Shown here: piece by piece, positions 553-2,448 of the stretch
Layout of the letters: the number at the start of each line of letters is the position of its first letter
Numbering within the stretch: the stretch's first letter is position 1
Source of the DNA: a virus
Taxonomy: Duplodnaviria; Heunggongvirae; Uroviricota; Caudoviricetes
Virus record (IMG/VR): IMGVR_UViG_2778261446_000009
Location: 1 to 21,912 of that record
Length of the DNA stretch: 21,912 bases
Direction: 5' to 3' (one strand)
The notes under the pieces: model-generated
Seen by the model: only the letters and a program-made list of their open reading frames with translations
Database searches by the model: none
Told to the model about the DNA's origin: nothing
Position numbers and translations under genes: made by a program

Positions 553-2448
553 CTAGATCTTATCTATATCCTTTGAAATGTTAACAACTACCTTGGCCCC
601 GCTACCATCTGAATTAATCGGGCTATTAGTTGTATTGTCAATTATCGAAAACAAAGCTTCACGATAATTCGGATCATTAAATGCTGACAAAATAACCCTT
701 TTACCCCAACCAATAGTGTCAGGGAGAAACGAAAAACCTGACACCTTAAAGCCTGGAGGGGCCTTTACATTTAAATTGCTAATTCCTCCGCTACTGGAAT
801 AGTAGGCACTTATGTATCGTTCAATATCTCCACCAAAAGATACTGTAGGGCTCGTAGCTGTACATGTAACTTTAACATTGTAATTTTGTGCAGGTCTCTT
901 AGCCTCTGCGCCTCCAGCCCCTGTGAAAGCCTCTCTTGACTCGTCAAAAGTGCTTTTGTTCAGGGTAGTTAATATTTTCTTCCTTACGTAATTGAATACG
1001 AAGTTATCTCCTGCCGCAGTCCAATGAATATTATCGAACCTGTAGAATGCGGGATTTAAAAGCTTCATCGCATCGTACATATCAATAAGAGAACAGTTGT
1101 ATTTAACAGCAATATCTTTCATTGATGATATATAAGGTTTTATGGTTTCGTATGGTAGAAATTGCTCGGGTGGCATAGACATGAGAACAATAATGCAGTC
1201 ACTCTTAAACTCTCTTGCCTTTGTTACGAATTGTTCTACATTAAATTTAAATGTATCGACTGGAACACCAGTTGCTACATCATTTGCCCCAATGATGTAA
1301 AAGATAACATCTGGAGCATATGCACCCACCAGGGTGTTATATTCGGAAAGAATTTGCCCAGATGTCCACCCTCCTTTTCCTGTCACCTTGGGCCATGTTC
1401 TTCCGGCGTGAGTTATTCCATATATAGTTATTTCTCCACCCTGCGCGCCTGTGGATGCATTCCTCACGTTGCTAATCGTTATCTCCCTATAGTCTGCATC
1501 CATTGGTATGAGCATATATTCTGATGATTGATATTTCCCATCAATTGATGTGTTGTCAAACTCTGCTGTAGCAATGTTAAACTTAACCGCAGTTGCCGCT
1601 GGTGCTTTTGCTATTATTATCGCCGGAGTGCCTGGATAGTTATTGTACAGGCTAAGCGTCTGTCCAGGCTCAAATGTCCACTTGAGCGCGCGGCCGTTTA
1701 AGGCTATGTTCTTTAGTTGCAGTCCGCTGAAAGCAGATACGGAGGCATCTGAAAGCCATTGAATATCGAAGATGTTTGTATATGCTGGAGTTGCTGTAAA
1801 TATAGCATCCCTGACCAAATAAGACCAAGAGCTTAAACCAAATGGCTGATCTGTTGAGTATCCTGCATAGTTGACTCCCCACGCTGCTGGATACCCAACA
1901 CCATTAAAACTGAGCGAGTCACCAGTGATAACGACAGATAAGTTGAAATTGAGTGAGTTAGCTGTGGAGGATATTTTTTCAACGTCATTTTGGATTACTG
2001 TAAACCCATTTAGCGCATTCGTGTATAGGTCTTCTAGTTTCTCACTTACGCTTTTGTCTCCATCATAGACTAATTTTGCACCGTCTGGTCCTGCCAAATC
2101 CTGACGCAACTTATCTGGATTGTATTTTAGAACATTCTGAAAATAGAACTGCTGCGCACCATACGCATCATAAACAGCCATCGAATGGCCTTGCACAGTT
2201 ACGAATTTGGCAATCTGTCCATTATATACAGGGTAACCAGCAGCGTTAATGATGATTGGCTGTGCAACAGGAACGTGAGAACCATCTTCGTTCTCCACAT
2301 AAACCTGAATCTGGTTATCAGGATTTACCGGGTCAGTGTCAATTTTACCGATATAAATTTTGCCATTGGCAACGGCTTTAAAAGAACGCGCCATAGTGAA
2401 GAGTTGCGAAGGCATGCTTACCACAACATTGGCTGTAATGTCTGTCAT
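553..2448 (-). CDS. Tailspike protein, chimeric: P22 gp9-like head-binding N-terminal domain plus a C-terminal domain with SGNH/GDSL-hydrolase-like motifs (putative polysaccharide esterase)
   Basis: N-terminus [43 protein letters not shown]... is near-identical to the P22 tailspike head-binding domain. The remainder is unrelated to the P22 endorhamnosidase and contains GDS (VVITGDSLS), GxND (IIGANDVA) and DxxH (DNIHW) motifs. RBS GGAG lies upstream of the ATG at 2446-2448. The C-terminal domain DNA is visibly AT-rich. Confidence 0.85.

Follow-up and report, generated by a model that had tools for sequence, protein, structure and literature searches.

The tailspike gene

We analysed a stretch of viral DNA of 21,912 nucleotides (hereafter the window), IMG/VR record IMGVR_UViG_2778261446_000009 of the class Caudoviricetes, in which a single open reading frame at 553-2448 on the minus strand encodes a protein of 631 residues (Table 1). 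Taken as a whole, the evidence makes it likely that this gene specifies the tailspike of a temperate, P22-like podovirus that is integrated beside dacD in Escherichia coli, and that its product couples a P22-type head-binding domain to a receptor part with SGNH esterase function. An NCBI protein that is 100% identical (P0001) carries the name 'phage tailspike protein [Escherichia coli]', and the same gene call is found on contig NOCT01000050.1 of GCA_002517975.1, the assembly that matches the window. A first-pass annotation, made from the letters of the window, had proposed a P22-type adaptor joined to an SGNH esterase-type receptor module gained by exchange, and this central idea is supported by profile matches, by a structural model and by similarity breakpoints.

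Table 1. Positions of the tailspike gene, its predicted domains and catalytic residues, and adjoining signals in the window (aa, amino acid residues)
Feature	Position	Strand	Remarks
Hairpin, probable transcription terminator	515..546	minus	Directly 3' of the stop codon
Complete tailspike coding sequence	553..2448	minus	Single open reading frame, 631 aa, ATG start, stop TAG at 553-555
C-terminal all-beta domain, aa 496-631	556..963	minus	Putative role in trimerisation and/or glycan binding
SGNH core, aa 351-495	964..1398	minus	Blocks II, III and V
Block V DNIH, Asp472 and His475	1024-1035	minus	
Block III GAND, Asn389	1282-1284	minus	
Block II Gly359	1372-1374	minus	
Insertion between blocks I and II, aa 186-350	1399..1893	minus	Conserved helix (SSWSYLVRD), then beta-sandwich domain
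First SGNH strand with block I, aa 171-185	1894..1938	minus	Lipase_GDSL match starts here
Predicted nucleophile Ser178	codon 1915-1917	minus	G176, D177 and S178 invariant in 49 homologues
Helical neck/linker, aa 114-170	1939..2109	minus	Part of the transferable cassette; three short helices in the model
Mosaic junction, aa 112-116	2101..2115	minus	Similarity breakpoints
Head-binding (virion-attachment) domain, aa 1-113	2110..2448	minus	Pfam PF09008
Shine-Dalgarno-like GGAG	2457..2460	minus	8 nucleotides before the ATG; read from the sequence

Head-binding domain and mosaic junction

Residues 1-113 match the whole of the Pfam profile Head_binding (PF09008, positions 1-113) with an E value of 6.3e-66 (220 bits; cut-off 24). 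In a sequence search of the PDB the closest solved relative was Sf6 gp14 (7sg7), followed by P22 gp9, and the identity over these residues is 90% to the former and 75% to the latter; the domain is therefore of the P22 type, as had been claimed, but not near-identical to that of P22 gp9. The PHROGs matches listed fall mainly on the head-binding end and are uninformative for the receptor module.

Past residues ~113-120 we found no similarity to the catalytic domains of P22, Sf6 or HK620, and all tailspike matches in the PDB end there, in agreement with the earlier view that the remainder of the protein is unrelated to the P22 endorhamnosidase. A second P22-type spike is similar up to residue ~113, the fibre of Escherichia phage CY1 is similar without gaps from residue 112 to the C-terminus at 72% identity, and homologues with other adaptors begin to align at residues 112-117, distant relatives sharing only residues ~171-495. 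The junction thus lies at residues 112-113 (nucleotides ~2110-2115), close to the position near 2100 originally assigned to it, and it is defined by similarity and not by composition.

Base composition had been offered as evidence for the mosaic, in the form of a drop to AT-rich sequence near 2100, and this argument had to be abandoned. Guanine-plus-cytosine (GC) content is 42.3% in the head-binding part vs 41.3% in the rest of the gene, the corresponding values at third codon positions (GC3) are 40.0% and 36.6%, and a change-point scan likewise gave no step near 2100, the strongest single breakpoint in the gene falling near 1311 with a z of 2.4, which is insignificant after scanning. The real GC step is situated near 5900, where ~50% in the virion structural genes gives way to ~42% in the immI-like region and the entire tailspike gene.

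The receptor part belongs to a small family of SGNH-type proteins

Two Pfam profiles match the receptor part above their curated cut-offs, namely Lipase_GDSL_2 (PF13472; 57.9 bits, cut-off 32.9) and Lipase_GDSL (PF00657; 36.2 bits, cut-off 23.6), and in NCBIfam the only match was to TesA, far below threshold. The GDS, GxND and DxxH motifs reported in the first-pass annotation are present within the Pfam matches as GDS at 176-178, GAND at 387-390 and DNIH at 472-475. Since the Lipase_GDSL match spreads residues 174-487 over positions 3-207 of a 208-position profile, a large insertion after block I is implied.

A search of 5.8 billion proteins yielded 56 relatives, and conservation was assessed, in full-length numbering, on an alignment of 49 sequences with identities down to 19%. 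Invariant among these homologues are G176-D177-S178, D214, G359, P379, G387-A388-N389-D390, D472, H475 and G480, which include the block I serine, block II glycine, block III asparagine and block V aspartate and histidine of SGNH enzymes; S207, W208 and R213 recur in 90% or more of the aligned homologues. With a profile built from the 49 sequences, the block II, III and V motifs line up with the equivalent motifs of Axe2 and of further SGNH esterases of known structure. By profile score and by conserved blocks, the receptor part is assigned to the SGNH/GDSL hydrolase superfamily, with a predicted catalytic triad of Ser178, Asp472 and His475 and with Gly359 and Asn389 as putative oxyanion residues.

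Within this very large superfamily, the cassette that begins at the junction is a small sequence family and rare in E. coli: among 1.84 billion representatives at 50% identity it found 31 matches at E <= 1e-30 and 299 at E <= 1e-3. Chromosomal or prophage homologues from Pectobacterium (P0007 and P0008) share 48% identity with it, and the tailspike sequence itself falls into a cluster of 15 members at 90% identity and was read on three contigs.

Predicted fold of the receptor part

An AlphaFold2 model of residues 116-631, computed as a monomer from the homologue alignment, reached a mean predicted local distance difference test score (pLDDT) of 91.9 and a predicted template-modelling score of 0.86. 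The predicted fold is the three-layer alpha/beta/alpha arrangement of SGNH enzymes with accessory beta-sandwich domains, as the first-pass annotation would have it. A beta-helix glycosidase (pectin-lyase-like) fold was considered and rejected, as there was no Pfam match to one, no beta-helix among the listed PDB matches, and a model composed of alpha/beta and beta-sandwich parts. With SGNH profile matches and no beta-helix, both checks that the first-pass annotation had named as able to refute it turn out in its favour.

The domain limits in Table 1 were derived from the secondary structure of the model together with the end-points of the alignments. The neck is the least confident part of the model (pLDDT 58-84). 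Close relatives carry it along with the esterase module; distant relatives do not, and their alignments begin only at residue ~171. In the insertion, strands run through model residues 115-232 with pLDDT above 90, and the equivalent insertion of one homologue (P0051) gave a weak, sub-threshold match to CBM_6. The C-terminal domain has eight strands in the model (pLDDT 90-96) and is retained in closer relatives only, the alignments of distant ones ending at residues ~485-497. Neck, insertion and C-terminal domain were each without a Pfam match even at E <= 10.

The best Foldseek matches of the model are carbohydrate O-acetylesterases, with Ape1 (PDB 4K3U, 8GLD; E 1e-12 to 2e-15, ~400 aligned columns, 11-15% identity) leading overall, followed by CE2, CE3 and Axe2. 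Ape1 is a periplasmic housekeeping enzyme without virion adaptor, neck or C-terminal domain, all of which this spike possesses. Each of the two proteins combines an SGNH domain with a beta-sandwich, which in Ape1 is presumably inserted after block I, as it is here. The match to Ape1 raises the question of whether the ester attacked could lie outside polysaccharides such as O-antigen or capsule, for instance in O-acetylated peptidoglycan or, by an activity resembling that of lipases or acyloxyacyl hydrolases, in the acyl chains of lipid A or another outer-membrane lipid. We regard this as very unlikely, given that the likeness to Ape1 consists chiefly of a shared two-domain topology, that the distal end of a tailspike touches O-antigen or capsule before anything else and cannot reach peptidoglycan, and that all SGNH domains of phage tailspikes characterised so far deacetylate surface polysaccharide.

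Exchange of the receptor module

The distribution of the two parts of the gene in E. coli differs sharply on either side of the junction. When positions 1-6000 of the window were compared by megablast with 5,426 complete E. coli genomes, 1,207 of them shared the immI-like region and the head-binding part, the latter at 92-98% nucleotide identity in P22-like prophages, and in all the E. coli prophage matches listed similarity breaks off at nucleotides 2101-2147. The receptor part (400-2150) was present in two genomes of the 5,426, those of strains S163-2 and DETEC-P61, at 99.3% identity. Module exchange is in this way shown directly by the breakpoints in sequence similarity.

The cassette is found behind five different virion adaptors, namely the P22 Head_binding domain, the T7 tail-fibre N-terminus with Tail_spike_N, Tail_spike_N alone, a tail-collar fibre N-terminus and Mtd_N, and the three types other than those of P22 and T7 occur in metagenomic relatives. 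Such a spread over adaptors is characteristic of a receptor-binding module. The Pectobacterium prophage spike P0008 likewise combines a head-binding domain with an SGNH module. The window and the DETEC-P61 prophage have the spike in common and lack nucleotide similarity in the immI-like region (~2760-7520) and in part of the tail-needle (gp26-like) gene (~10330-10800), hence one and the same spike is carried on different mosaic backgrounds.

Gene context

The tailspike gene stands at the end of a P22-type virion block with homologues of gp4, gp10, gp26, gp7, gp20 and gp16, in which the families P22_Tail-4, Phage_stabilise (gp10), P22_gp7, Inj_translocase and P22_gp16 were recognised. An immI-like region, which carries an Arc-family gene as well as a Bro-N/P22_AR_C antirepressor, separates these virion genes from the tailspike gene. 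This is where a P22-type virion module has its tailspike gene, following the genes for the ejection proteins and immI and at the end of the prophage, which on contig NOCT01000050.1 adjoins dacD; an equal gene layout is seen in a RefSeq relative. The hairpin downstream of the gene has a stem of 12 bp and a folding energy of -20.6 kcal/mol (z = -4.8 vs shuffles), and since the tract of uridines behind it is weak (AUUAUU), we speak of a probable terminator.

Some further observations concern the surroundings of the gene. At 4863-5504 on the plus strand, within immI, a gene of 213 residues with HTH_3 and Peptidase_S24 domains (cI/LexA-like) is placed between the gp16 ejection-protein gene and the antirepressor, and the stretch 2101-5570 that includes it matches P22-like prophages of ~1200 E. 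coli genomes. A fragment of another S24-family (UmuD/LexA-like) peptidase gene, at 1-369 on the minus strand between the tailspike and the host dacD, is annotated as a frameshifted pseudogene in RefSeq relatives and marks the border region of prophage and host. An open reading frame of 217 residues at 2185-2838 on the plus strand, antisense to the 5' end of the tailspike gene, owes its extent to the first-start rule and is artefactual; what is truly encoded there is an Arc-family repressor, whose gene covers about 2551-2838 and is called at 85-95 residues on matching contigs.

The peptidase pseudogene adjoining the tailspike, together with the rarity of the module in complete E. coli genomes, could be taken to mean that the gene is a decaying remnant in a defective prophage and its protein non-functional. 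This appears highly improbable in view of an intact reading frame of 631 codons with a ribosome-binding site, of a complete P22-type set of virion genes around it on two mosaic backgrounds, of a confidently folded model with conserved catalytic residues, and of the recurrence of the exact sequence on three contigs within its 15-member cluster.

Proposed function

We think it likely, by analogy with characterised phage spikes, that the protein is a mosaic P22-type spike that binds and O-deacetylates a host surface polysaccharide. Its head-binding domain would dock the spike onto the tail hub, and from residue ~112 onwards the neck, the predicted SGNH esterase, the inserted beta-sandwich and the C-terminal beta domain together constitute a transferable receptor cassette. 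The spike would bind an O-acetylated host polysaccharide, be it O-antigen, capsule or another exopolysaccharide, and would remove O-acetyl groups by means of Ser178, His475 and Asp472 while leaving the backbone uncut; such bind-and-release chemistry would bring the virion to the outer membrane, following the precedent of gp63.1 of phage G7C. Deacetylase activity is suggested by homology and precedent, and the spike presumably forms trimers and may require catalysis for infection.

Published work provides several precedents. The SGNH esterase gp63.1 takes O-acetyl groups off the host O-antigen and leaves the chain intact (PMC10743462, PMC13123978), and this activity is essential for infection (PMC10743462). 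In the epsilon15 spike, an SGNH 'petal' deacetylates galactose (bioRxiv 10.64898/2026.07.31.742079). Klebsiella prophages commonly encode receptor-binding proteins of the SGNH type, two of which are active esterases (PMC13123978), and T7-like Pectobacterium phages have horizontally acquired SGNH spikes (PMC7693777).

Lysogen hosts and candidate receptors

The complete lysogens S163-2 and DETEC-P61, one of them isolated from a pangolin and one in an intensive care unit, both in Guangzhou, look like one clone. Both carry O-antigen clusters of the O5 family (NZ_CP116152.1, L004 28263-30836; NZ_CP058709.1, L005 13582-16155), whose sole acyltransferase gene sits between genes for a sugar 3,4-ketoisomerase and an aminotransferase, a trio that we ourselves read as a set for Qui3NAc synthesis resembling QdtA/C/B. 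O-acetylation of the E. coli O5 antigen is not given in the text of the E. coli O-antigen review. Deducing the receptor from the serotype of the lysogens was considered and given up, as two lysogens of a single clone do not amount to an association.

Several points weigh against the proposed deacetylation of a host polysaccharide. There is no obvious O-acetyltransferase gene in the O5-family cluster of both complete lysogens and the wzy gene of that cluster is annotated with an internal stop, so an O-acetylated O-antigen receptor is not evident in these hosts. The link to gp63.1, moreover, is one of predicted fold at 14% identity, and in searches of the PDB gp63.1 was detected neither by phmmer nor, at E <= 0.001, by the 49-sequence profile. 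Finally, the esterase activity is a predicted one, here as in close relatives.

In the light of these hosts, the SGNH module might mainly be a receptor-binding lectin, with its esterase accessory or dispensable for infection, as in the epsilon15 petal, for which early studies are cited to the effect that infection does not depend on acetyl groups (bioRxiv 10.64898/2026.07.31.742079); the two accessory beta domains could do the binding. We are doubtful of this explanation. Unlike epsilon15 gp20, the present protein has no beta-helix depolymerase, which leaves the SGNH domain as the one enzyme that can be recognised in it; the invariance of the full catalytic set down to 19% identity argues for selection on catalysis, and in G7C the corresponding activity cannot be dispensed with. 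A lectin, a non-polysaccharide ester and a decaying gene are all rendered less likely by the invariant catalytic set, the lack of any other spike enzyme, the expected location on the virion and the intact gene context, and we continue to favour a spike that deacetylates surface polysaccharide.

As to which polysaccharide this might be, the cassette could deacetylate an acetylated glycan conserved across Enterobacterales, for example enterobacterial common antigen, colanic acid or a polymer resembling the N4 glycan receptor, rather than a serotype-specific O-antigen. We consider this unlikely, though compatible with three observations: the O5-family cluster has no evident O-acetyltransferase and a disrupted wzy, DETEC-P61 possesses wcaB and wcaF for the acetylation of colanic acid, and phages with widely differing hosts carry the cassette. 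If true, a P22-type phage could use a 'key polysaccharide' to pass differing O-antigen shields.

Comparison with known systems

The nearest systems in terms of virion architecture are the tailspikes of P22 (gp9), Sf6 (gp14) and HK620, with which this spike has in common the head-binding domain, the gene position and the '...KY(D/N)PD' junction. Their receptor domain is a right-handed beta-helix endoglycosidase that cuts the O-antigen backbone, whereas none is found in this protein.

In terms of the receptor part, the tail fibre of CY1 (UOL49326.1), a T7-like phage of the genus Kayfunavirus for which we found no literature, carries the same cassette with all catalytic motifs. Its N-terminus is a T7 tail-fibre adaptor with Tail_spike_N in place of the P22 head-binding domain, and CY1 is a lytic phage whose fibre is uncharacterised, whereas this spike comes from a temperate P22-like prophage. 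With a nucleotide identity of only ~69%, the exchange between the two is not recent.

Tailspike receptor modules determine which hosts a phage infects; spikes of the esterase kind alter the surface glycan without cutting it. Among the latter, gp63.1 (PDB 4QNL) acts on the E. coli 4s O-antigen and is attached through gp66 to an N4-like virion, in contrast to attachment by a P22 head-binding domain here. A tblastn search of the phage collection at E <= 1e-5 did not bring up the characterised Klebsiella and Pectobacterium spikes. The receptor-binding proteins of Klebsiella prophages and the spikes of T7-like and N4-like Pectobacterium phages combine an adaptor with an SGNH esterase, as here, albeit in other hosts and with other adaptors; esterase or deacetylase activity has been shown for some of them and horizontal module exchange is documented (PMC13123978, PMC7693777, PMC10743462).

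As SGNH esterase spikes and the swapping of adaptors and receptor modules at the head-binding junction are already well documented, current understanding is unchanged by the present spike, which is an uncharacterised and rare example. It does, however, represent a clean natural case of an esterase cassette behind a P22 adaptor, with a sharp junction at residues 112-113, and could be useful for engineering receptor-swapped spikes and in efforts to predict which hosts P22-like prophages can infect.
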